A DNA stretch of 64,000 nt from Verrucomicrobiia bacterium (GTDB lineage: Bacteria > Verrucomicrobiota > Verrucomicrobiia > Limisphaerales > UBA8199), in NCBI GenBank assembly GCA_035946615.1, contig DASYZB010000010.1, positions 5,235 through 69,234 on the forward strand, read 5' to 3'. Both the position numbers and the translations under genes were made by a program. This document shows, in pieces, positions 29,248 through 40,869 of this stretch. How positions within the stretch are numbered: position 1 is the stretch's first letter; each line of letters begins with the position of its first letter. The notes below the pieces were generated by a model, which saw only the letters and a list, made by a program, of their open reading frames with translations, made no database searches and had not been told where the DNA came from.

Positions 29248-29362
29248 GGTTCCAAACCTTTGCAGGAGACGACGAAAGGAGTCTCTGATCAAGATTGTCA
29301 GTTGGCCGCCTTTGGTTCCGGGAAGTTGCTGATCAGAGACTCCTTACGTCGTCTCCTACACT
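29248..29362. repeat. Palindromic intergenic repeat, family A (copy 2)
   Basis: See 22865..22989. Confidence 0.7.
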
Positions 29363-29894
29363 TGGGATTTTAGAATTTTGCTTTGCGATTCTTGATTGAG
29401 GGACCGCAGATGACGCAAAGATTAACGCAGATGAATTGTGGATTTCAGAGGGGAGGAGCGCGAATTGGGGGGCGGGTTTTGGGAGTCTGAAAAAGGGACG
29501 AACACGGACGGAGGGCAAACGGCAGATGGCACACAGAGGGGCGGCGCGGCGCAGTCTGAAAAATCTAGGCATTCCGTGTTCCCGCAGCCCATCACTTGGA
29601 GGCGGACCGCAAAAGGGTTCTGGCGCTGGTCGAGGAGCGATTGGATTATTTCGAGCGCCGAAGGTGCGCAGGCGCGGCAAAAAAGGAGGGAGGCCCGTGA
29701 GCGCGGCTGGCGAAGCCTGTCTAAAGGGTCGAGTCAATGGAATGAGCGCGAAACCGGCAAAGCGAATGGGATCGAGAGGCTTTACGCTTCTTGAACTGTT
29801 TGGCGATGGACATGTGGTTCTGGTGAAGCGGACCGATTACCTATTCCCGCCGAGATTGCCAGCCAATTGCGCGCCCACACCGTGACACTTGGCC

Positions 29895-31100: not shown

Positions 31101-31329
31101 GACGCTTCCGTGCTGTCGAGAATACCGGGGCCGCCCCGTTCCGCCAACGACAATTGCCGCAATTCGTTGCTAATTGCTAAGAGATCTAAGAGATGGGCTT
31201 GAAAGCGGCCATACTGTAAGAATGAATTTGTGCCTGGGATGAGGAAACAATAAAACTGGGGGACAGAATCATTCGGAATGGAGGGTTTACAGAAACAGCA
31301 AAGGCTCACCATGCGCCAATCCTGGCGCA

Positions 31330-31357
31330 ATTGAACATAACATACATTGTGCGAAGC
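31330..31357 (-). other. dif: dif-like XerC/XerD recombination site
   Basis: The minus strand reads GCTTCGCACAA-TGTATG-TTATGTTCAAT. A hand alignment to the E. coli dif core gives 23/28 identities (8/11, 5/6, 10/11). Confidence 0.7.
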
Positions 31358-31395: not shown

Positions 31396-32262
31396 ATGAG
31401 CAAACCAAACCTCATCCAATTTGGGACTGCCGTGGGCTTTTACCGCAATCCCCGAGTCCGCGAACTCTATGACCGGCTCAAAAAAGAGATACCGAGGAAG
31501 GTAGATTTTGCCGAGTTGGCGCCGATGCTTTTTCAGGTGGTTATGTCCGCTGCTGCCGAGAACCAGATCGACGGTGACTTTGCAAGCTACAACGCCAACC
31601 GCTGGTGCGAGATTTTCCTGGCGAACCATGTGCAAGTAACGCTCAAGGAAGCTTCGCTGATCCGGGTTTTGTTTAAAGACATCGGCTTATTCGAGGGGGA
31701 CAAAATCCGTTCCTGGGCCAAGTTCAACCGGCACCTGGCCGACTACGAGGGTATCGTCAAAGCTAAGAGACGAGCAGGCAAACTTTCGGCAAAGAGGCGC
31801 GAACAAGACGCCCGATCAGCCCTCAAAGGAGGTCGAAAAAACGACGAAATTTCCGCTTCGGAACCCGAAAAAAGCGCTTCCGAAAATGGTTCTGCGAGCA
31901 AGCAACTTTGGCTCATCGAAAAGGGTCTGGAAAAGGCCAAAGGCAAAGCCCGCCGGGAGCTGCTGGTCAAGAAGGAACGTCTCCTGAGCGGTGAGCTTGG
32001 CGTTGACCTCTCCGAGCCAGCGCCGGCAGCTCGCCCGCCGGCGCCCAAGGCGCAAAAGGAAACTCCGGGCGGATGGCAGCGGACGCTGCTCAGCTCTGCG
32101 CGGCAACTGCTGGCCGATTCACCGGAGCTGCTCACCGAGAAGATGGTTATCGCCCTGGCCAACGCGCGCGCCAAATTCCCGGAGGACGTTTACCAGAGAT
32201 TTCGCAAGGTCCTTGACGGCCTTGCCGAAAAAGAAGCCGGAGACAATCCCGTCCCCGGCTAA
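31396..32262 (+). CDS. Hypothetical protein, possibly replisome-organizer/DnaD-like (288 aa)
   Basis: The N-terminal ~130 aa end in LIRVLFKDIGLFEGDKIRSWAKFNRH, which resembles the winged-helix end of phage replisome-organizer N-domains. A Lys/Arg/Glu-rich linker and a helical C-terminus follow. Confidence 0.45.
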   Translation: MSKPNLIQFGTAVGFYRNPRVRELYDRLKKEIPRKVDFAELAPMLFQVVMSAAAENQIDGDFASYNANRWCEIFLANHVQVTLKEASLIRVLFKDIGLFEGDKIRSWAKFNRHLADYEGIVKAKRRAGKLSAKRREQDARSALKGGRKNDEISASEPEKSASENGSASKQLWLIEKGLEKAKGKARRELLVKKERLLSGELGVDLSEPAPAARPPAPKAQKETPGGWQRTLLSSARQLLADSPELLTEKMVIALANARAKFPEDVYQRFRKVLDGLAEKEAGDNPVPG

Positions 32263-32286
32263 ATATCAGAACCGAAAGGAAGCATC

Positions 32287-32562
32287 ATGCAAAAACCAGA
32301 ACCTGTCACGGAGGAAGTTATCCGCGAGGACCTCAGCGTCAATTCCGACGATGGAGGCGAGCCTGCCGTTGCGCGTGGCATCAGCAAGACGCCGCTGATC
32401 AACCGCGAGCATGTCCGGGCCCTGCTGCTGGACCTGGCCAAGGCCCGGGCGCACAAATATACGCGAGTCAGCGAAGAAACGCTGCTCACCGTCAACGAAA
32501 TCGTCCGGGCCCATTGCGTGTATCACGTAGGGCGATTCCCATCGAAAGGCAAAACGCTATGA
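32287..32562 (+). CDS. Hypothetical protein (91 aa)
   Basis: Normal composition. Its stop overlaps the next start as ATGA. Confidence 0.55.
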   Translation: MQKPEPVTEEVIREDLSVNSDDGGEPAVARGISKTPLINREHVRALLLDLAKARAHKYTRVSEETLLTVNEIVRAHCVYHVGRFPSKGKTL

Positions 32563-32951
32563 GCGACTACGAACCCTCGGCGGCCACCGTGCTCGACTGG
32601 CTGCACTCAAATTTAGGCGGAGCCGCCCTTGCTCCGCTGACGGGCAGCGACACTCACGCGCTGCGGGCAGCGGTGCAAATCATGGAGCAATATGCCTACG
32701 ACCGGCACCCGGGACTGCTCAATGCGTTTGCTGAGGTGGTCGGGCGGATGCAACCAAAGACGCGGGAGCTAGCTTACCACGCAATCGCCCACCCTCTCGA
32801 CTGGAGCGACCGTGCACGGGTATGGGCCGAGGCCGGACTGGGAACACCGGTTTTTTTTCAACCGCGCATGAAGTGCTCATTCGAGCCGGGCGGCTCTCGC
32901 ATCGATCACCTGGAGCTAGAGCAGAAAGAAGGTGAGGCGGAGAGCTTATGA
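32559..32951 (+). CDS. Hypothetical protein (130 aa)
   Basis: The internal ATG at 32559 overlaps the upstream stop (ATGA), and the downstream junction is also ATGA. Confidence 0.55.
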   Translation: MSDYEPSAATVLDWLHSNLGGAALAPLTGSDTHALRAAVQIMEQYAYDRHPGLLNAFAEVVGRMQPKTRELAYHAIAHPLDWSDRARVWAEAGLGTPVFFQPRMKCSFEPGGSRIDHLELEQKEGEAESL

Positions 32952-33124
32952 TTTCCGATTTTGAATTCTTCGAGAACGCGGAACGCATCAAGCAGCTTGA
33001 GGCTCTTCAAAAGGAGCTTCTTGAAAAGAAGATGGCCCGGCTCAAAGCCCAGATACAGAAGCTTTGCCAGGATTCTGCGGAACGGAAGGCCCAGGACAGG
33101 TTAAAGAGAAAGGAGCAAAAATGA
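32948..33124 (+). CDS. Hypothetical coiled-coil protein (58 aa; below the track cut-off)
   Basis: My own translation is MISDFEFFENAERIKQLEALQKELLEKKMARLKAQIQKLCQDSAERKAQDRLKRKEQK. Both junctions are ATGA overlaps. Confidence 0.45.
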   Translation: MISDFEFFENAERIKQLEALQKELLEKKMARLKAQIQKLCQDSAERKAQDRLKRKEQK

Positions 33125-33333
33125 AAGCAACAAAAAGACCGAGGCTGAGTTCTGCTCAACCTCGGTTAGGAGCGCGATTGGAACTCGCGCTAACAACAGG
33201 CGGGTGGTGGTGCCACGATTGTCAGAGTCACACCGAGCGCATTGAGAGCGAGCAGGGTGAGCCTGCAAGTTGCGCCGGATGCGGCTCTCACCGAATCGAA
33301 TACCAACCGCCGATCACATCAGCAACTCTATGA
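33121..33333 (+). CDS. Small zinc-ribbon protein (70 aa)
   Basis: CHDC...CAGC forms a CxxC-x19-CxxC arrangement. Both ends have ATGA junctions. Confidence 0.5.
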   Translation: MKATKRPRLSSAQPRLGARLELALTTGGWWCHDCQSHTERIESEQGEPASCAGCGSHRIEYQPPITSATL

Positions 33334-33569
33334 CCAAAGAAATTTTAATCCAGATAATTCCCGATGAGCGGACGCGGTTTCTGTGCTCTGACCACGAGCT
33401 GATGGACAGCCTGGCTTCGGCCATAAAACCAATGGTGAAGGGCTGCCTCAAGGTTTGGACCACAGGGCCAATCCCGGAAATCAAGATCGTGCCAAAGGGC
33501 GAAATGAGCGCCGGCGAAACAGTGCGGAGCGCGCTGGACGATCCGAGTGATGTTCCGCCCTGGCGATGA
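33330..33569 (+). CDS. Hypothetical protein (79 aa)
   Basis: ATGA-coupled at both ends. Confidence 0.5.
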   Translation: MTKEILIQIIPDERTRFLCSDHELMDSLASAIKPMVKGCLKVWTTGPIPEIKIVPKGEMSAGETVRSALDDPSDVPPWR

Positions 33570-33757
33570 GTGCCGAGGACGCACTGCGGTTCCTCGACCA
33601 CGAGTCCGGCTATTGCCGCTGCCACGATCAGCACGAAGCTTTGTGCCTGCTCTTGCCGGGCCTGCTCCGGGTCCTGGACCTCGAGCCGATGAACAGTTAC
33701 GAGGCTGAGAAATTCCGCAGCGAATTCCGCAAGGCGCTCAGGGAGGCCAAATGTTGA
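33566..33757 (+). CDS. Hypothetical protein (63 aa)
   Basis: The start is ATGA-coupled. Confidence 0.45.
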   Translation: MSAEDALRFLDHESGYCRCHDQHEALCLLLPGLLRVLDLEPMNSYEAEKFRSEFRKALREAKC

Positions 33758-33936
33758 AAGACTACCTTTGGTTCGGTCTGGCCTATCTGGCAACGCTGCT
33801 GCTGTTCGCGGCCGCCTTTGGGGGAGGCTGCTGCGTTGGCCGCTGGTCCAAGGAACTGGAAGAGCTGCGCAAGCTTCCGCCTTGGCCAGGACGAAAGGAG
33901 CATCGCGCTGAAAACTACACTGAGCGAATTGGTTGA
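33751..33936 (+). CDS. Small membrane protein (61 aa)
   Basis: One hydrophobic helix (WFGLAYLATLLLFAAAFGGG). It overlaps the previous gene by 7 nt. Confidence 0.45.
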   Translation: MLKDYLWFGLAYLATLLLFAAAFGGGCCVGRWSKELEELRKLPPWPGRKEHRAENYTERIG

Positions 33937-33964
33937 AAGCTCCGAGCAATTGCCCGGCGCTTTG

Positions 33965-34198
33965 ATGATGCAGGTTTGTCTCGAGGACGAGCTCGGAGCC
34001 GACCTGGCGCTGCCGCTGGCGAAGAAGGCGAGCACGACGGCTGAACGGATGCGGCGCTACCGTGCCCGTAAAATCCTTTACCGGCATCTTCTGCGGGCGC
34101 GCTCTCTGGGCTTGCCCATCTCTGACGCCATCCAGCTTTTGCATGCTGCCTGGCAAAACAAGCCTCCCCAAAAATGCCCTCCCCGATTCTCAGCGTAA
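33965..34198 (+). CDS. Hypothetical protein, or an upstream relic of the MTase pseudogene
   Basis: It lies in the same frame as the MTase remnant and is separated from it only by a TAA at 34196-34198. It ends in KPPQKCPPRFSA, which loosely resembles the PCQxFS catalytic motif. Confidence 0.3.
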   Translation: MMQVCLEDELGADLALPLAKKASTTAERMRRYRARKILYRHLLRARSLGLPISDAIQLLHAAWQNKPPQKCPPRFSA

Positions 34199-34477
34199 CG
34201 CAGATCGGCGTTACGGCCCTGGCTCGATGAGTCACAACCTGAGCCAAGCTGGTTCCTGCTCGAGAACGTGCCCGGGGTTCCGGACATTCACATTTCGGGC
34301 TACCAGGTCCAGCGGTTCAACTTGTTCGCCCATGAGTTTGGTTTAAGACAAAGCCGCAACCGCTCGTTCCAGTTTGGCAGCCGTGACGGCCGTCCACTTC
34401 AGCGGAATTGCCGTCCAATCGAGCCTGGCCAAAAAGGCTTGAAAAAGGAAGGCGCTAGTAGGAAAGTTGCACCATGA
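34199..34477 (+). pseudogene. DNA (cytosine-5)-methyltransferase remnant (ENV and QxRxR motifs only)
   Basis: The reading is PSWFLLENVPGV...FGLRQSRNRSFQFG. Motif I, the target-recognition domain and motifs IX/X are absent. Confidence 0.6.
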
Positions 34478-34734
34478 GCGCCACAGTTTTACGCGAAAAG
34501 CGCCAGACCACCCTGCCGGTCGAGGTGGTTGAAGCAGCCGGCCTGAAACCAAACGACCAAGTGGACTGGCGTTTCCAGGACGGCGAGATACGCGGACGGA
34601 AGCTCGAGCCGGTCAGGCCCATCCCCAGGCTTAAACCGCTCCGAGTAAAGGGCCGGCTGCGCCCTCCTGATGGCTTCAAGCCATCCCGCCAGATCATTGC
34701 GGCCGCCGTTCGCGCAGACCGGGACGATAGATGA
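34474..34734 (+). CDS. vapB: AbrB/SpoVT-type antitoxin (VapB-like)
   Basis: KRQTTLPVEVVEAAGLKPNDQVDW is a swapped-hairpin AbrB motif. It overlaps the PIN gene as ATGA. Confidence 0.75.
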   Translation: MSATVLREKRQTTLPVEVVEAAGLKPNDQVDWRFQDGEIRGRKLEPVRPIPRLKPLRVKGRLRPPDGFKPSRQIIAAAVRADRDDR

Positions 34735-35126
34735 GGCGTTACTGGGACAGCTCCGCGTTGCTGGACGCCTTTTTCGAGTCCAGGATTGAGTCCTTAGTCC
34801 GGGAACCGGACCAATGGACAAGGCCCCACACCCTTGCTGAGATGTTTTCGGCCCTTACGGGGGGACGGTTAGGCGGACAATTCCATCCAGCCGACGCGTC
34901 CGCCATCGTCCGCGAGTTGACGGAGACCATGAATTTTGTCGAGCTGGACGCCAAAGAGGTTCAAGCGGCACTGGATTCGGCGGACAAGCACGGCGTCCGG
35001 GGAGGGAACGTCCATGATTGGATGCACGCCACGGCTGCAAAGAAAGCCGGCGCTATCGTCCTGCTAACCGACAATTCCACGGACTTCCAGAATTTGGCGG
35101 ACGGATTCGCCGTCGAGGCTCCTTAA
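34731..35126 (+). CDS. vapC: PIN-domain toxin (VapC-like)
   Basis: Acidic residues are in PIN positions (YWDSSAL, AEMF, LLTDNSTDF). It has the classic two-gene arrangement. Confidence 0.8.
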   Translation: MRRYWDSSALLDAFFESRIESLVREPDQWTRPHTLAEMFSALTGGRLGGQFHPADASAIVRELTETMNFVELDAKEVQAALDSADKHGVRGGNVHDWMHATAAKKAGAIVLLTDNSTDFQNLADGFAVEAP

Positions 35127-35749
35127 AACAGTTTCCCGGACAGTTTTGTCCGGGTTAGGCGATTCCAGGACAGGAAACTCCCCAAGGGCAATCCCTGGAC
35201 AGCCTCCGCATCGGCCCCCAATCGCCGGACACAAGCCAATTCCTTGGGTTCATCAAGGCGGAAACAGACCAGTTCGGTGGACTGTCCGGTAATGGAGGCA
35301 TTAATCAAACTCGGACTCTGAGTGGCGGAGACAAGCTCCGTGTCCTCTTCACGGCCAAGGCGGACAAGCCTGTCCAGCTCTCGGGGAATGTCCTCGCGGT
35401 CCTGCCATTGCCAGATTTCGTCCACCAATACCAGTTTCTTGCCCGGACCGCGTTGGGACGCTGCATACACCCAATCGCAGAAAAACCGGAAAGCGGCTTT
35501 GTAGTCGCCATCCGGGAACATCCGGGCAGGATTAAAGATGACCCATCTCGAGGCCAGCGCCGCCTCGAGTTCGGCGGACGTGTAGCATGGACGGAGATTG
35601 AGCCGGGTGGCAGCCCGGCCCAGGTCATCGAACAAGAACCGGCAGGCAGCCGGCGCGTTCAGCAGGTAGCGATAGGCAAAGGTGGATTTCCCGCTGCCGG
35701 ACATGCCGACAATCAGCGTGTTGGCCAGCTCGAGGGTGTAATCGGCCAT
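35123..35749 (-). CDS. Small P-loop NTPase, FtsK/HerA/VirB4-like (possible virion packaging/morphogenesis ATPase)
   Basis: Walker A GMSGSGKST and Walker B LVLVDEIW are followed by RLGREEDTELVSATQSP. It is 208 aa with no TM helix. Confidence 0.65.
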   Translation of the reverse strand: MADYTLELANTLIVGMSGSGKSTFAYRYLLNAPAACRFLFDDLGRAATRLNLRPCYTSAELEAALASRWVIFNPARMFPDGDYKAAFRFFCDWVYAASQRGPGKKLVLVDEIWQWQDREDIPRELDRLVRLGREEDTELVSATQSPSLINASITGQSTELVCFRLDEPKELACVRRLGADAEAVQGLPLGSFLSWNRLTRTKLSGKLF

Positions 35750-35813
35750 CTGCTCAATGAGTCACACCCTGGTTCAGCCGGTCCAAGGGCCAGAAGGAGC
35801 AAGGTGTAGTGCA

Positions 35814-36263
35814 TTATTTTTCTTTCTCTTTCTGTGGTTCTTGTTTTGGAGGAGGCTGGAGATTCTGCAAAGCAATCAGCTTATCGAGCCGGCGCAAGAG
35901 CTTGACGTGGTGTCCGCCGATGAGCGCCAGCGAGCTGACCAGGACAGCCACGTCTTTATACTCGGGACTGATGCCAGTCGCGTTGAGCAGTTTGGCCGCC
36001 ACACGCGGCGCTGAAATCTCGAGGCCGCGCTTGCCCACAGTCGGCCATTTAGCCGAATCCTGGATTTCCTGGACGATCTCTCCGGGCAGCCTGGCCTTTT
36101 CCGCACGGCTGCTAACCTGTAGGGCCATTCCCTCTTCCAACGCCGGGATCAACTGTTCGCAGATCGGTTTGAGTTCCTCCGGGTCCCAAGGTACAGGCGG
36201 AGGACTTTGAGGAAAAGCCACACCGCCCGCACCAACAGGCGCCGCTTGAGGCGAGTTAGCCAC
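35814..36263 (-). CDS. Hypothetical protein (149 aa, GTG start), upstream of the ATPase
   Basis: Pro-rich N-terminus, helical core and a Lys/Glu/Pro tail. It is co-oriented with the ATPase. Confidence 0.5.
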   Translation of the reverse strand: MANSPQAAPVGAGGVAFPQSPPPVPWDPEELKPICEQLIPALEEGMALQVSSRAEKARLPGEIVQEIQDSAKWPTVGKRGLEISAPRVAAKLLNATGISPEYKDVAVLVSSLALIGGHHVKLLRRLDKLIALQNLQPPPKQEPQKEKEK

Positions 36264-36457
36264 AGCCGCGGCGCTCGGCAGTGGCGGAGGTTCTGGGGAA
36301 CGCTGCTTGCGCTTGCGCTGCGCATCTTTCTTCCGGTCGGCTTCGATGGCCTCGGGTGATCCTGGGACAAGGCCGTCCAGGCGTTTGCGTCCGCCTCGCA
36401 GGCCTCCATGCTTTGTAGCTGCTTCGCCAGCAGAAAGCGGAGCGGAAAAAACTCGAA

Positions 36458-37036
36458 GTGAGTTTGTATTGCAACGGGATTTACATTACGAACAATCCCA
36501 CTTGGGCGGTTCAAATCTTCAACACGGGCGACACCACGCCGCCCCGTTTCAAAATCGCCAGCAATGGGTCCGCCTCGCAGCACTTTTGGCAGTTTCAAAA
36601 GGACCTGGAAAGCAACGGGAGTCAGTTTGAGTTCTACTCGAGCACCAATGGGGGCAGCAACGTGAACCTCACTCTGACGCTTGACCCATTCAGCGGCAAT
36701 GAAAATCTGGTGTTCGGAAAGTACGTCGGCAACCTGGCCGGGGCCACAAATGTAAGCTCTACGGTGCTTGCCAGCTCGGCCGATGTGGCTCTTAAGGGCT
36801 TCGAGGAATACGTCTTCCTGGCCGGCAACCATACTTGCACCCTCGGCAGCGCTGCCACCAACGCGGGACATTCGGTCTCGATCACCTGCACCAGCGCCGG
36901 CACGAATGCGATTCTGCCTATTTTGAGCCAAACGATCACCGGTGCCAGCAAGTGGACTAACGGAGCCATTTACACCGTCACCAAGCTCATCAGCGACGGG
37001 TCCAACTGGCAGATAGCCGGCTCTCGAGGAAACTGA
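36458..37036 (+). CDS. Beta-rich Ser/Thr/Asn/Gly-rich structural-type protein (192 aa, GTG start)
   Basis: No helices are evident. The C-terminus TKLISDGSNWQIAG is reminiscent of phage fibre/adsorption protein ends. Confidence 0.5.
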   Translation: MSLYCNGIYITNNPTWAVQIFNTGDTTPPRFKIASNGSASQHFWQFQKDLESNGSQFEFYSSTNGGSNVNLTLTLDPFSGNENLVFGKYVGNLAGATNVSSTVLASSADVALKGFEEYVFLAGNHTCTLGSAATNAGHSVSITCTSAGTNAILPILSQTITGASKWTNGAIYTVTKLISDGSNWQIAGSRGN

Positions 37037-37038
37037 TT

Positions 37039-37461
37039 ATGGCCTGGTTCGGACTCGATAAACTTTTTTTGGGGTACGACCTGACTGCCCAGCAGCAGCA
37101 GAGCAACGCCCTCGACGCGCAGATCAACAACGTCAACCAGGCGCTGCAAACGGCCGGTTACGTCCCGCCAGGCTATGCCGAACAGGCCGCTGCCGACATT
37201 GCGGCGGGGGACAACAGCACGGGCGCGGGCGACGTGGTTCAAAGCGTGGATTCCGAATTCGTGGCCGGGGCTAAGCAGGGCCTTGACAACGTGCTGACCG
37301 CGCCCGGCAAAGTCGTTGGGGCAGTCGGTTCGGGGGCCTCGACTCTCTTAGGCGGCATAATCAAAGCAATTCCCTGGTGGGTCTGGCTCGGAGCCGCCGC
37401 GGCCCTGTTCGTCTGGATGGGCGGCCTCGAGCTGCTGAAAGGAAGGTTCGCGCGAAAATGA
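37039..37461 (+). CDS. Gly/Ala-rich protein with a C-terminal TM helix and basic tail (140 aa)
   Basis: The C-terminus reads ...AIPWWVWLGAAAALFVWMGGLELLKGRFARK. Confidence 0.55.
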   Translation: MAWFGLDKLFLGYDLTAQQQQSNALDAQINNVNQALQTAGYVPPGYAEQAAADIAAGDNSTGAGDVVQSVDSEFVAGAKQGLDNVLTAPGKVVGAVGSGASTLLGGIIKAIPWWVWLGAAAALFVWMGGLELLKGRFARK

Positions 37462-37649
37462 CTCAGCAAGACTCTTTACGCCTTGTGCTTGTCCGCATCG
37501 AAACAAAGGTCGATCTGCTTATAGCTAATGACGGCGACAAGGAGAAGCGAATCCGCAAGCTTGAACGCCGCGACGGCATCGTGGCCGGTGCTTCCGGCAT
37601 CGCAGCAATTTTGTCCCCAATCGTTTGGAAAAAGTTATTCGGTTTATGA
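37458..37649 (+). CDS. XhlA-like architecture: short coiled coil plus a C-terminal TM helix (63 aa)
   Basis: RIETKVDLL...KRIRKLERRDGIVAGASGIAAILSPIVWKKLFGL. Both ends have ATGA junctions. Confidence 0.5.
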   Translation: MTQQDSLRLVLVRIETKVDLLIANDGDKEKRIRKLERRDGIVAGASGIAAILSPIVWKKLFGL

Positions 37650-38212
37650 TAGAAACAGCAATACCAGCGCCGGCTGCTCCGGCAATCAACGCGCCGGCCG
37701 TCCAGGCCGCAGCCAAGGACCTCGTGGATACTGCCACGCTGGTTAAATCAATCCTCACGGCCTACAAACAAGGCGGCGCCGCAGCGGCCGCTGGCCAGCT
37801 CCCCGCCGCCGTGAGCCAGATCGCCACGGATATAAAGGACGCGGAGGCTGCCCTGCCCTCGATCAAAAGCGGCTACGCTACCACGGAATTCTGGCTCACT
37901 GCCGGCGTCGTGGTTCTCAACGGCGTTTATCCGCTGGTCACCGGCAAGCAACTCCCATTCGATGCCAATATCGTGATGGGCGCTGCCGTGGCCATCTACA
38001 CGGCAGCTCGAGGCCTTCAAAACCAAAGCCGCATGAAACGGTTATGCTTTTTGACTGGACTCTGCTTGCTGCTTAGCGGCTGCAAAGTGGTTGAGCGCAT
38101 CGCTACTGCCCCGCTGGGCCTGGCCATGGGGGTTTATTGGGGCGCTCACGACAGATCGCCCGGAGTTGAAAGGCCTCCCAATACCAACAGCTTTTCTGCA
38201 TTGCCCCATTGA
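37646..38212 (+). CDS. Two-TM holin-like membrane protein (188 aa) with an in-frame lipoprotein-type start near its 3' end
   Basis: The TM segments are TTEFWLTAGVVVLNGVYPLV and IVMGAAVAIYTAARGL. Confidence 0.5.
   Translation: MIETAIPAPAAPAINAPAVQAAAKDLVDTATLVKSILTAYKQGGAAAAAGQLPAAVSQIATDIKDAEAALPSIKSGYATTEFWLTAGVVVLNGVYPLVTGKQLPFDANIVMGAAVAIYTAARGLQNQSRMKRLCFLTGLCLLLSGCKVVERIATAPLGLAMGVYWGAHDRSPGVERPPNTNSFSALPH
38033..38212 (+). CDS. Possible internally initiated small lipoprotein (59 aa)
   Basis: An in-frame ATG gives MKRLCFLTGLCLLLSGC, a lipobox-type signal peptide. Confidence 0.3.
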   Translation: MKRLCFLTGLCLLLSGCKVVERIATAPLGLAMGVYWGAHDRSPGVERPPNTNSFSALPH

Positions 38213-38216
38213 ACCA

Positions 38217-38426
38217 ATGCTCACTGGCTTTCTATCTCTGGCGGGCGCGTTGCTCTCCATCCTCTTTTGGGAGATGAAACGGCGCGCCGCCAAGGTGGAC
38301 GATCCGAGAAATGAAAATCAAAATGCACGCGACCAAAACCGGCAGGCGATTGCCAATGGTTCTGCTGGCGATCTGCTTGACCGCCGGCTTAACCGGCTGT
38401 CTCCACCCGCAGGTCAAGGTCATTGA
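38217..38426 (+). CDS. Small N-terminal-TM protein (69 aa), i-spanin-like position
   Basis: MLTGFLSLAGALLSILFW is followed by a charged tail. The next lipoprotein gene starts inside it in another frame. Confidence 0.45.
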   Translation: MLTGFLSLAGALLSILFWEMKRRAAKVDDPRNENQNARDQNRQAIANGSAGDLLDRRLNRLSPPAGQGH

Positions 38427-38571
38427 CCCAACGACAACCGTTCAGCGGCTCCCAAGAGGAACCAACGTAACGGCCTGCGTGGATGGCTATTTTGTGCCTG
38501 ATGCGACCATGCTTCGGATTCTCGATCACCTCGGGGAGCTGGATGTCTTCGGCACAAACCAAACAAAGTAA
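38311..38571 (+). CDS. Small lipoprotein (86 aa), o-spanin-like overlapped arrangement
   Basis: The signal peptide with lipobox reads LLAICLTAGLTGC. The start is embedded out of frame in 38217..38426. Confidence 0.55.
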   Translation: MKIKMHATKTGRRLPMVLLAICLTAGLTGCLHPQVKVIDPTTTVQRLPRGTNVTACVDGYFVPDATMLRILDHLGELDVFGTNQTK

Positions 38572-38577
38572 AAAAAT

Positions 38578-38958
38578 ATGAGCGAAACCCAAACTTCAAC
38601 GCCGCCGCCTGCACTGGCGCCAGGCCAGCCCGTCCCCATCAGCCCCGGCAAGATTCCCGAGAGTATAGCGGCAATCCGCGTCCTTTCTGATCCGATGCAG
38701 CTGCTCGAGAAAGAGGCTGACGACCTTTTGGCTCAGAATGCCGCTCTGCAAATCGAGAACAGCACGCTTAAGAACCAGGTTGAACAGCTTACCGCCTTGG
38801 TCCAAAAGAAACCGGCGGCCGCTGGCTTCTTGCCAGCCACTGAAGCAGAGCTGCGCGCGCTGGTGAACGGCTTGGAGAAGAAAGCGCTGCCTTGGGGTTA
38901 CCGAGCGGGCAAACTGCTCTCTGAGCTGGTCAACGAACGCTGGTTGCTCAGGCGATGA
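38578..38958 (+). CDS. Coiled-coil protein (126 aa)
   Basis: Heptad-like LLEKEADDLLAQNAALQIENSTLKNQVEQLTALV. Confidence 0.55.
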   Translation: MSETQTSTPPPALAPGQPVPISPGKIPESIAAIRVLSDPMQLLEKEADDLLAQNAALQIENSTLKNQVEQLTALVQKKPAAAGFLPATEAELRALVNGLEKKALPWGYRAGKLLSELVNERWLLRR

Positions 38959-39095
38959 GCTTTCTACGCTCAGCACTGAGCCTGGTTACTCAGGCCGTTA
39001 AGGACCTGTTCTCGGGCAAGATTAACGCCCTCGGGCTTGCCATGCTGGCTCTGGCGGGCTTTGTCGGTTGGTGGCTCTGGAAGAAGCTCAAATGA
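38955..39095 (+). CDS. 46-aa single-TM protein with a basic C-terminus (coat-protein-like; below the track cut-off)
   Basis: My own translation is MSFLRSALSLVTQAVKDLFSGKINALGLAMLALAGFVGWWLWKKLK. Both ends have ATGA junctions. Confidence 0.45.
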   Translation: MSFLRSALSLVTQAVKDLFSGKINALGLAMLALAGFVGWWLWKKLK

Positions 39096-39253
39096 ACCAA
39101 CGCCAAGCCACCGCTTCGATCATCATGCTGGTGCTCATCCTGCTGGGCATGGCCGGCCTCTATTACGGCCTCTGGAAGGCTTACCAGCTTTACCAGCAAT
39201 ACCAGGCACAATACCAAAAAGGCGGAATCCTCGGTCTGCTAGGTGGAAAATGA
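39092..39253 (+). CDS. 53-aa single-TM protein
   Basis: MNQRQATASIIMLVLILLGMAGLYYGLWKAYQLYQQYQAQYQKGGILGLLGGK. The start is ATGA-coupled. Confidence 0.45.
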   Translation: MNQRQATASIIMLVLILLGMAGLYYGLWKAYQLYQQYQAQYQKGGILGLLGGK

Positions 39254-39635
39254 AGTCCAAATTGCGCAAAGCCAACAGGTCCAAACGGCGTCCTGGGCGG
39301 TCACGGCGGGGAACGGCCATGATAAGCGTCCGGTTCCGGGAGCCCTTGAGGTTTCTCAAAACCCTGTTGCATTAAAGCTGCCTTGCGTCCTGCCGGTCTC
39401 CGCCGCCGATGCCCTTGCCTGGGCCGAAGGCCGGCTGGATGATCTGGACCTTGTGCTGAATGCCAAATTGCGCCCGGAAGCCGTCTTTGTCGTGAACCTT
39501 CCCAACCTTCGCTCTTACCGTCAAACGCTGCGCCTAGTGGCCAATTGGCGCGAGCGCGGGGCAGTCTGCATGATAGCCCGAACCGGAAGCGATCTGGTGG
39601 AAGACGGTCACTGCGAAATTCATAGGGCTTCGTGA
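39243..39635 (+). CDS. Hypothetical protein (130 aa, GTG start); competes with a 41-aa Arg/Lys-rich ORF at 39250..39375
   Basis: The C-terminal two thirds have a normal protein-like composition. The true start is unclear. Confidence 0.3.
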   Translation: MENEVQIAQSQQVQTASWAVTAGNGHDKRPVPGALEVSQNPVALKLPCVLPVSAADALAWAEGRLDDLDLVLNAKLRPEAVFVVNLPNLRSYRQTLRLVANWRERGAVCMIARTGSDLVEDGHCEIHRAS

Positions 39636-39754: not shown

Positions 39755-39769
39755 GCACCTAAAAGGTGC
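39755..39769. promoter_or_regulatory. Palindrome GCACCT-AAA-AGGTGC upstream of the RHH antitoxin gene (candidate operator)
   Basis: A perfect 6-3-6 inverted repeat lies 12 nt before the ATG at 39781. Confidence 0.4.
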
Positions 39770-39780
39770 AAATTGAACCC

Positions 39781-40023
39781 ATGAAGCGTTCAGTTGACTT
39801 GGATGAAGACCTTGCCGCTGAGGTGGAAAAAGCGGCGGAGCTGGTCAGGGAAAAGCCGGCTACTGTAATTCGGCTTGCTATCCGTGCCGGGCTGCCAAGC
39901 GTTACGAGCCGATTCCAAGCTCCAAGGCCTGAGGGCTATTTCGCGGACGCTTACAAGGACGCTGCCCGGGCCGAGAGTGAGAACAAGATGCTATCTGCTC
40001 TGATCCAGAAACCGGAGCGATGA
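39781..40023 (+). CDS. Ribbon-helix-helix (CopG-like) antitoxin
   Basis: MKRSVDLDEDLAAEVEKAAELVREKPATVIRLAIRAGL. It overlaps the toxin gene as ATGA. Confidence 0.6.
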   Translation: MKRSVDLDEDLAAEVEKAAELVREKPATVIRLAIRAGLPSVTSRFQAPRPEGYFADAYKDAARAESENKMLSALIQKPER

Positions 40024-40346
40024 GGATTTGGCAATGGGAAATCTGGAAAGCGAAGGTTCCAGGATTCGCCGTTGATCATTGGTTTGTCCTGCTGAGCGGA
40101 CAGGAGCGGCTCGATAACCCGAAGCATCAGGCCTGCAATGGTCTAATCTGTTACACGCTGCGAGGACCGCCAATTTCCACAGATGTCCGGCTTGACGCGG
40201 CGGACGGGTTTAGAGCCGCTACCGCTTGCCAATGCGACTTTCTTTGGGTGCTTGATAAGCGGACGCTGCACAGCCAAACTGGGACGGTTTCCTGGGAGCG
40301 CCAGCAACAAATCCGCAGTAAAGTCCGCGAAATCTTGCGTCTTTAA
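40020..40346 (+). CDS. MazF/PemK-like toxin
   Basis: 108 aa. WEIWKAKVPG...HWFVLLS...CQCDFLWVLDKRTL..TGTVS matches the family's strand pattern and its position after an RHH gene. Confidence 0.55.
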   Translation: MRIWQWEIWKAKVPGFAVDHWFVLLSGQERLDNPKHQACNGLICYTLRGPPISTDVRLDAADGFRAATACQCDFLWVLDKRTLHSQTGTVSWERQQQIRSKVREILRL

Positions 40347-40380: not shown

Positions 40381-40869
40381 TCATTGGCTCAATCCATTTG
40401 TTGTTTGTTGTTTGCCGTGACCGCCTTCACGCTGGCTCAGGATCCGCCACCCATGTGTACCATACATTATTTTCAGAACCCTGATCGGGTCGGCGTTCGG
40501 AGAGTAGTCCTCTCCCCAAATAGCTAAAGTAGAATAGCGCCAGTTTCCACCGATGTACTTGATGCCAACGGTGCCTTTATCCAGAACGATCTCGTATGGT
40601 CTCTTCCCAGCCAAAGCAAACTCGCCTAGAATGTTGGTATCGGCGATAGACTCCTCCCCTGCCCCAGGGCCGCCCCGTTGCCGCATCAGACGATCACACC
40701 GGGATGCGAACTGATCCAACTCGCTGCGTGGAAGGGCTTCAACTGCGTCACAGAAAGCGCGACTTTTGGCGACCCGGTACCGAAGAACCCAAAATGGCAG
40801 GGCGACCACCAGGAGCAAAGCCCCGATTAGGAGGAAAACAACCCACGCCCGTGTCGTCATAGCTCCCAC
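40381..40869 (-). CDS. Hypothetical membrane-anchored protein (162 aa)
   Basis: N-terminal TM helix AWVVFLLIGALLLVVALPFWVL. I recognise no family. Confidence 0.5.
   Translation of the reverse strand: MGAMTTRAWVVFLLIGALLLVVALPFWVLRYRVAKSRAFCDAVEALPRSELDQFASRCDRLMRQRGGPGAGEESIADTNILGEFALAGKRPYEIVLDKGTVGIKYIGGNWRYSTLAIWGEDYSPNADPIRVLKIMYGTHGWRILSQREGGHGKQQTTNGLSQ

Follow-up and report, generated by a model that had tools for sequence, protein, structure and literature searches.

Vinavirales prophages have been described as integrated elements in Alphaproteobacteria and Verrucomicrobia (Yutin et al. 2022, Viruses 14:1842; PMC9502842). Nearly all Vinavirales genomes carry a gene at the ORF h position upstream of the packaging ATPase gene, and customised HHpred was needed to establish the homology of this gene with ORF h and PRD1 P10-like assembly factors. 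In addition, a P7-like mini-gene lies ahead of the capsid gene, replication modules are often swapped, and the Verrucomicrobia-associated members have no recognisable endolysin, some of them being perhaps inactivated (PMC9502842). PM2, a Pseudoalteromonas phage of the Corticoviridae, has the gene order ORF h, P9 ATPase, P7, P2 capsid, P3/P4/P8, gp j, P1 spike, P5, P6, gp k and gp l. In this study, we analysed a 64-kb stretch of contig DASYZB010000010.1 (assembly GCA_035946615.1), hereafter the window, which appears to harbour an integrated element of ~9 kb, extending from ~31.3 kb to 39.6 or 40.3 kb. Its right-hand module (35123-39635) would be the morphogenesis half. The element is very likely a defective, capsid-deleted Vinavirales (PM2-like) prophage remnant and not a new capsid-less virus. 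The host phylum of the window genome is probably Verrucomicrobiota.

The element resembles the clade A Vinavirales prophages of Verrucomicrobia and other members of the Planctomycetes-Verrucomicrobia-Chlamydiae (PVC) group in its probable host phylum, as judged from relatives in metagenome-assembled genomes (MAGs) of Verrucomicrobiota, and in its small FtsK/HerA ATPase preceded by a conserved uncharacterised gene. Relatives of the element also share with clade A a P2-type capsid, a P7-like mini-gene, small membrane proteins, a spike/fibre gene, swappable replication modules and the absence of a recognisable endolysin. Unlike clade A, the window copy is without capsid, P7-like, inner membrane-protein and penton genes and has no integrase. 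Two further differences are that, in the present family, the ORF-h-position/ATPase pair is usually divergent from the capsid operon and that a toxin-antitoxin (TA) slot follows the ATPase. As in PM2, the ATPase is homologous to P9, the relatives' capsid protein shows end-to-end homology with P2, and the overall order is a gene at the ORF h position, ATPase, P7, major capsid protein (MCP), membrane proteins, spike and late membrane/lysis genes. PM2 has a single late operon, a rolling-circle replication protein (P12) and no integrase or TA genes; it is lytic and complete, whereas the window element is integrated and capsid-deleted. A first-pass annotation made from the sequence had suggested that the module could represent an undescribed virus lineage, a reading that found no support; PM2-like (Vinavirales) prophages of Verrucomicrobia are already on record (PMC9502842). 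WNFR01 was not found in the supplements of that paper.

A packaging ATPase of the tailless-virus type

The ATPase gene (35123..35749, minus strand) is intact and encodes 208 amino acids (aa) of the FtsK/HerA class, with A32/B204/PM2 P9-like character. All open reading frames (ORFs) that the first-pass annotation had placed in the module are present at their coordinates, and the features listed for the ATPase were confirmed, namely Walker A GMSGSGKST, Walker B LVLVDEIW, the RLGREEDTELVSATQSP motif and the lack of a predicted transmembrane helix. The annotation had assigned the protein to the FtsK/HerA/VirB4 clade that includes the packaging ATPases of tailless membrane-containing viruses, with the Zot/pI domain of inoviruses as a more distant possibility. 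The first assignment is borne out for the small packaging ATPases. In PHROGs, phrog_2666 matched the ATPase with E=7e-24 (its annotation, "terminase large subunit", is a label applied to tailless-phage packaging ATPases), compared with E=0.27 for a Zot-like PHROG. A tblastn search of GenBank phages found the ATPase of Thermus phage P23-77, with 26.5% identity. When a profile built from 38 homologues (A1) was compared with the PDB, the best match was the genome-packaging NTPase B204 of STIV, from end to end (E=3.4e-6), with HerA ATPases ranking next. An hhalign comparison with PM2 P9 gave 98% probability and E=3e-13 over 164 columns with 26% identity.

The predicted structure points in the same direction. 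The AlphaFold (AF2) model has a predicted local distance difference test (pLDDT) score of 89 and a predicted template modelling (pTM) score of 0.88. Among the 16 best PDB fold matches in Foldseek, 15 were B204, with template modelling (TM) scores of ~0.70 in both directions, and the remaining one was a chain of a HerA complex. HerA comes next, HerA defence ATPases rank lower, and neither Zot nor VirB4 is among the top matches. The fold check proposed with the annotation, against B204, Zot and VirB4, was therefore answered in favour of B204 (TM 0.70), and the Zot/pI and VirB4 placements found no support. The protein is a minimal FtsK/HerA-type genome-packaging ATPase of the kind found in tailless membrane-containing viruses, and is neither Zot- nor VirB4-like. 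It shares a length of ~205-215 aa and a single-domain FtsK/HerA fold with STIV B204, the P23-77 ATPase and other A32-like ATPases of Varidnaviria. The likeness to these viruses is limited to the ATPase; they are archaeal or have single jelly-roll capsids. Unlike Zot/pI of the Inoviridae, which has a C-terminal transmembrane segment, the ATPase has no transmembrane helix and no Zot fold match, and its relatives have icosahedral capsid genes.

We also considered a non-viral origin, in which the module would belong to a conjugation or secretion apparatus with a VirB4-, FtsK- or TraB-like ATPase. Pfam FtsK_SpoIIIE and AAA_10 do match the ATPase, weakly and under the Pfam cut-offs, and the HerA defence ATPases among the lower fold matches could be read in the same way. 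However, the ATPases of conjugative or type IV secretion systems (VirB4, TraB and FtsK) are large and multidomain, whereas this single-domain protein of 208 aa can be matched from end to end with viral packaging ATPases. Its neighbourhood contains no relaxase, coupling-protein or pilus gene, and syntenic relatives carry viral capsid genes. We regard this explanation as extremely improbable.

More than 300 clusters of ATPase homologues were found at 60-81% identity, nearly all of them 207 aa long, in metagenomes and in MAGs of Verrucomicrobiota/Verrucomicrobiae. Scans of IMG/VR and of GTDB genomes with the single protein gave no match. An alignment-based scan identified three Verrucomicrobiota genome loci and again no confirmed relative among IMG/VR viral contigs. 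Thus, a PM2-like phage family with more than 300 ATPase clusters seems to have been missed by current virus catalogues.

Relatives of the element encode a PM2-type capsid

No protein of the module matches capsid, portal, terminase, tail or endolysin families in Pfam or PHROGs, and profiles of the PM2-type capsid made from four and six sequences found nothing in the six frames of the 64-kb window. The absence of these genes, which the first-pass annotation had reported, is therefore upheld. To place the module in context, the DNA around several ATPase homologues was fetched; fetched loci are numbered with the prefix L. Seven independent related elements have a gene for a PM2 P2-type double jelly-roll capsid protein, and it is intact in six (L001, L002, L004, L008, L012/L013 and L016). 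The ATPases of the capsid-bearing relatives are 52-73% identical to that of the window. In L001, L004, L008 and L012/L013, the protein has 291-303 aa and is encoded in an operon divergent from the block of the ATPase and its upstream gene; Pfam P2_N matched four of four and P2_C two of four. The capsid genes of L016 and L002 were detected by a broader profile. Against the PDB, the profile of the L001, L004, L008 and L012/L013 proteins matched 9t9v_A, "Double jelly roll capsid protein" (E=2e-11), and PM2 P2 (2vvf, E=3e-4), both end to end. A tblastn search of GenBank phages with the capsid protein of a relative gave no match. The capsid gene is divergent from the ATPase block wherever both operons are in view, and in the window a 192-aa ORF fills that position. 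A mini-gene of 36-41 aa precedes the capsid gene in L008 and L012/L013. L003 is a complete ~11.5-kb prophage with an integrase on a 1.1-Mb Verrucomicrobiota contig (ATPase identity 45%), and its 291-aa gene, which follows a gene for a small transmembrane protein in a PM2-like order, is a probable capsid gene only. In L011 (7125-8448; ATPase 72% identical), pieces of the capsid gene are distributed over three or more reading frames, reflecting either decay or long-read indel errors.

Both halves of such an element lie on one contig in L016 (GCA_009772255.1). Its minus strand carries the ATPase, a 67-aa gene, a 254-aa homologue of the upstream gene and genes of 63 and 99 aa. On the divergent side, a 92-aa gene is followed by the capsid gene (P2_N). 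The other end of the contig contains genes of 143, 144, 48, 378 and 193 aa, a homologue of the 140-aa gene, and genes of 223, 70 and 57 aa, the last resembling the 53-aa gene of the window; then come a 285-aa rep homologue, methylases and VapBC, leading back to the ATPase. Because of this shared gene order, the window element is of the same kind as L016. Relative to L016, integration opened it at the point where the structural operon ends and the 288-aa gene follows. Compared with L016 and L012, at least ~5 kb is missing from the window; the gap begins at about codon 25 of the upstream gene and ends at the fibre tip.

The comparison with syntenic relatives thus accounts for the missing capsid. 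Since the capsid gene is present in the relatives and not in the window, the window copy is a derivative of Vinavirales and not a functional member. The first-pass annotation had instead favoured a membrane-containing, pleomorphic or filamentous particle, possibly of an undescribed lineage. This would be a capsid-less virus comparable to plasmaviruses, pleolipoviruses or inoviruses. A copy without a capsid gene that encodes many small membrane proteins and lipoproteins would fit such a particle. Yet close relatives of both the ATPase and the 140-aa protein come with genes for PM2-type double jelly-roll capsids, the fold of the ATPase is like B204/P9 and not like Zot/pI, and the truncated genes described below are scars that point to loss and not to design. 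A new capsid-less virus is highly improbable on these grounds, and the capsid genes of close relatives likewise make a pleolipovirus or plasmavirus unlikely (Pleolipoviridae/Plasmaviridae have spike and internal membrane proteins, and no member has a capsid protein). The relatives also differ from Sphaerolipoviridae-like viruses (P23-77/SH1 type, Helvetiavirae), which have two single jelly-roll MCPs beside the ATPase; the relatives carry one PM2-type double jelly-roll protein. The ~9-kb circular contigs that the annotation had proposed to look for were not found among the 8-10-kb contigs, none of which had the terminal overlap of a circular genome.

Truncated genes at the junction of the two operons

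The gene preceding the ATPase had been read as a 149-aa protein. This ORF exists (35814-36263, minus strand, GTG start at 36263), but it is only the 3' part of a longer conserved gene. In relatives, the upstream gene encodes ~240-260 aa, and in the window both the frame and the homology run past the GTG at 36263 to ~36443. The most conserved motif of the family, GGLRGGRKRxDGLxPGSPEAxxADR, is kept in frame beyond 36263. The extension contains no ATG, GTG or TTG start; the frame is open to 36485, and a stop codon lies at 36486-36488. The feature (35814..36443, minus strand) therefore corresponds to the conserved ~240-aa gene found ahead of the ATPase in all relatives, at the position of PM2 ORF h, but with its 5' end missing. 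The genes of the relatives have ~20-25 extra N-terminal codons, with one or two further genes upstream, and 340-570 nucleotides (nt) of intergenic DNA separate the divergent operons. The homology of the window to L020, L011, L008, L001 and L004 stops at ~36443-36458, and L020, the nearest relative (ATPase 81% identical), keeps its 101-aa upstream gene. At the inferred deletion junction (36443..36490, no strand assigned), the minus-strand gene remnant extends across the GTG at 36458 with which the 192-aa ORF starts, and no divergent intergenic or promoter region is present. Pattern scans for sigma-70 promoters and terminators performed no better than on shuffled sequences.

The 192-aa ORF (36458..37036, plus strand) is likewise present as annotated, but only its C-terminal half has homologues. 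A word-index search gave two hits and a single partial homologue, and an exhaustive search of 1.8 billion representatives returned 51 matches, all limited to the C-terminal ~95 aa; residues 1-77 had no homologue in this set. The first 77 codons are coding-like in frame. In the matched proteins of 73-900 aa, many of which have signal peptides, the domain is C-terminal, and it is internal in two larger repeat proteins. The best match, P0123 (768 aa), also has the domain at its C-terminus and is encoded directly upstream of the 140-aa gene homologue in L015. At the position before the 140-like gene, L016 has genes of 378 and 193 aa and L018 genes of 321 and 268 aa, with other C-terminal domains. 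In the AF2 model, pLDDT exceeds 90 for residues 100-190 and is below 50 in the N-terminal half. Foldseek matches of the confident domain in the PDB were tailspikes, a capsid spike and T4 gp9/gp10-like domains, and 273 viral models matched it, annotated tail fibres among them. The C-terminal-only homology, the fold matches and the position of P0123 identify the 192-aa ORF as the distal stub of a fibre/spike gene, with a fibre-tip beta domain at residues ~100-192. Residues 1-77 fit an internal shaft piece of a hypervariable fibre that was exposed by the deletion.

The jelly-roll fold for which a structural check of 36458..37036 had been proposed is rejected, because the sole confident fold is the C-terminal fibre-tip domain, which resembles tailspike/fibre domains. 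Its ~95-aa beta fold is similar to the N-terminal domains of CBA120 TSP4, to T4 gp9/gp10-like domains and to the capsid spike of Pa223. In contrast to those fibre and tailspike proteins, the window domain sits on a short N-terminus without homologues and in a tailless-phage context. A P1-like spike with a penton domain was not found in the window, the N-terminus of the 192-aa protein having neither a homologue nor a confident fold, and the long spike proteins of the relatives have no Pfam or PHROG match. The domain, at 36755-37036 of the window, belongs to no Pfam family and has the consensus ...TLPTA..G..FTI.CTS.GTNAIL..SSQTI.GA.KWTNTA...T..SDGANW.V.G.N. At least 51 representative proteins, with lengths of 73-1621 aa, contain it, nearly always at the C-terminus. 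This fibre-tip domain is shuffled among the fibre proteins of tailed and tailless phages.

An assembly error could mimic such a junction if the contig had been mis-joined or collapsed at ~36443-36490 and the real prophage were complete. The window derives from a 72.7-kb metagenome-style contig, and contigs of almost the same sequence from a second sample end at the edges of the island (31432 and 41043), indicating that the region assembles poorly. On the other hand, no repeat capable of causing assembly collapse is present at the junction, both flanks stay in open reading frames, and the integrase is missing too, which one mis-join does not explain. We consider an artefact unlikely.

Proposed origin of the window copy

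We propose that the parent family consists of widespread PM2-like (Vinavirales) temperate phages of Verrucomicrobiota, which would be tailless and icosahedral with an internal membrane. In intact members, a divergent promoter region would drive two operons. One probably comprises one or more small genes, the gene for the ~240-aa protein and the packaging ATPase gene. The other would begin with a P7-like membrane protein, the ~290-300-aa double jelly-roll capsid protein and small membrane proteins, and end with the spike/fibre genes, the 140-aa anchored protein and further membrane proteins and lipoproteins, with an integrase in some members. A deletion is inferred from the truncated upstream gene, the truncated fibre gene and the missing divergent promoter region. 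One deletion of ~5 kb or more would have brought the 5' end of the ~240-aa gene up against the distal portion of the fibre gene, taking both promoters together with the P7-like, capsid, membrane and penton/spike-base genes. What would remain is the intact ATPase gene, the start-less upstream gene, the fibre-tip stub (192-aa ORF), the distal membrane and lysis-like genes, the replication module and the TA pairs. The homologies, the synteny, the truncations and the absence of capsid and integrase genes are demonstrated; that a single event was the cause, and that the copy is non-functional, are the conditional parts of this scheme. The window copy is unable to build a capsid alone and would be a cryptic, grounded remnant of a prophage, in whose retention the TA modules may play a part.

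Several points weigh against this reconstruction. The ORF h label of the upstream gene is by position only, as hhalign detected no similarity to PM2 gp h. The right-hand breakpoint was placed by the loss of homology in a hypervariable fibre gene and not by alignment to an ancestor, and the metagenome-type source contig makes a mis-join at 36443-36490 conceivable. The capsid assignment in L003 is weak (Pfam P2_C E=0.04, hhalign 0.9%), and the match in L002 may lean on L003. L016 and L018, the closest relatives in the replication module, have no integrase in the parts seen, so that the absence of this gene in the sub-lineage may not reflect a loss. Finally, no frameshift interrupts the ATPase gene or the other ORFs that remain, all of which are intact, suggesting either recent decay or a selected function.

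The last point raises the possibility of a functional, satellite-like derivative of Vinavirales that has its own ATPase, membrane proteins, fibre tip and replication module and borrows the capsid of an intact relative, a co-resident or co-infecting helper. In its favour are the intact ATPase, 140-aa protein, replication module and TA pairs, a size of ~9 kb that could still be packaged, and the abundance and mosaic nature of related elements in metagenomes. However, the junction is unique, and none of the databases searched yielded a homologue of the N-terminal half of the 192-aa protein. The gene preceding the ATPase no longer has a start codon, and the promoter region is gone from both operons. 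Moreover, this architecture was seen in no other fetched locus. A satellite is accordingly quite unlikely, although, if true, it would be the first described for tailless double jelly-roll phages.

As a capsid-deleted remnant, the window copy is an ordinary defective prophage, and its relatives are the better targets for follow-up. It illustrates that a virion-like module without a capsid gene can arise by decay and need not represent a new virion type. From the comparison there also emerges a large Verrucomicrobiota-associated family of PM2-like temperate phages, in which a TA slot follows the ATPase and fibre-tip domains are swapped.

Distal structural operon

Downstream of the fibre stub, the plus strand encodes transmembrane proteins and lipoproteins, at the position where Vinavirales have small virion membrane proteins and lysis factors after the spike gene; the 140-aa and 53-aa proteins are conserved in relatives. 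Most of these small ORFs have a transmembrane helix or a lipobox, in agreement with their first description as membrane or lipid-anchored proteins. The original ORF list omitted two genes, encoding 126 aa (38578-38958) and 130 aa (39243-39635); all the ORFs that it did contain exist. GC content at third codon positions (GC3) is coding-like in all module frames, and this, together with the homologues of the ATPase and the 140-aa protein, indicates that the module ORFs are real genes and not chance ORFs.

The 140-aa protein (37039..37461, plus strand) has a C-terminal transmembrane anchor (residues 107-125) and 84 homologues at 40-74% identity. In relatives, its gene always comes after the fibre/spike gene (L010, L015, L016 and L018), and the protein showed no similarity to PM2 P5 or P6. 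The next gene (37458..37649, plus strand) encodes a 63-aa small membrane protein by transmembrane prediction; it had no detectable sequence homologue among the fetched loci, and a 66-aa gene sits at its position in L018. The 188-aa protein that follows (37646..38212, plus strand) has two hydrophobic segments, read by eye because they fall below the threshold of the transmembrane scan, and then an in-frame lipobox, LLSGC. This architecture recurs at the equivalent position in L010 (419-1144), L015 (3707-4474), L016 (3215-3886), L018 (2822-3466) and L003 (17129-17719), after the 140-aa gene. Sequence similarity among these genes is undetectable between elements, and the build, N-terminal transmembrane helices plus an in-frame lipobox cysteine, is constant. 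The window protein seems shorter past the lipobox than the copies in relatives. Judging from its predicted architecture, the 188-aa protein is a candidate lysis or outer-membrane factor, and the combination of transmembrane helices and lipobox may represent a fused or nested lysis/spanin-like factor. It may supply the lysis function that Yutin et al. noted as missing in the Verrucomicrobia-infecting Vinavirales.

Further downstream on the plus strand are a 69-aa ORF with one transmembrane helix (38220..38426), an uncertain call that overlaps the next gene; an 86-aa predicted lipoprotein with the lipobox LTGC (38311..38571); the 126-aa coiled-coil protein (38578..38958), which has only weak Pfam matches to coiled-coil/leucine-zipper families; and two small proteins of 46 and 53 aa with predicted transmembrane helices (38955..39253). 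Genes for homologues of the 53-aa protein close the structural operons of L016 (61% identity) and L018. The 130-aa gene (39243..39635, plus strand) is the last gene of the structural operon, and its homologue in L011 adjoins the integrase gene.

Replication module, toxin-antitoxin genes and edges of the element

The replication/regulation module (31396..34198, plus strand), recognised by homology to relatives, consists of a gene for a 288-aa protein and small genes, including one for a zinc-ribbon protein. The 288-aa protein matches L016 and L018 with E=1e-89 to 1e-95 (the L016 homologue has 285 aa, E=1e-89), and in both its gene lies directly after the end of the structural operon. Other small genes of the module are common to L004, L008 and L018. 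A stretch of ~20 nt upstream of the 288-aa gene (31336-31357) is conserved. In L016 (4557-5302) and L018 (5030-6006), the structural operon and the 288-aa gene follow each other on an unbroken contig with no integrase visible between them, so these may be circular/episomal forms or be integrated at another point. Integrases were found in L002, L003, L011, L012 and L015, in two of them next to the end of the structural operon. No trace of an integrase or of DnaB was detected in the window.

A VapB/VapC TA pair (34474..35126, plus strand; Pfam MazE_antitoxin and PIN) is convergent with the ATPase. The position directly after the ATPase, in convergent orientation, is a conserved TA slot in L004 (4674-5284), L008 (5962-6590), L013 (4396-4952), L016 (9568-10205), L018 (11163-11737) and L003 (10648-11324), and the families that occupy it vary (VapBC/PIN, ParE-RHH and PemK). 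A second TA-like pair, of 85 aa and a PemK-like 108 aa (39766..40346, plus strand), lies at the right edge, where its membership in the element is uncertain. The 108-aa protein has matches in L018 (the PemK_toxin gene) and in L011 (the gene adjoining the ATPase).

No tRNA gene was found in the window. A 16-nt direct repeat (15/16 identical) at 31125-31140 and 40664-40679, 9539 nt apart, roughly brackets the island. It is a weak candidate for the attachment (att) sites, and no other was found around the island; the right copy lies within a 162-aa ORF, and the repeat could be due to chance. A search for an empty integration site in near-identical strains found only contigs that end at the island edges. 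Two contigs of SRR28522400 (L023 and L022) are 98.7-99.8% identical to the host flanks and end at 31432 and 41043 of the window, respectively. The left contig end lies 37 nt into the island, and the right one ~170 nt past the 162-aa gene and ~700 nt past the PemK-like pair (40346). These breaks suggest strain heterogeneity or the presence of several variants of the element. Outside the island, downstream of a 1147-aa gene, there is an inverted repeat (29261-29360) with 31-nt arms that are 94% complementary and a 38-nt loop, and two copies of a 26-nt GGGGCGG...GTCTGAAAAA motif are located near it, at 29469 and 29538.

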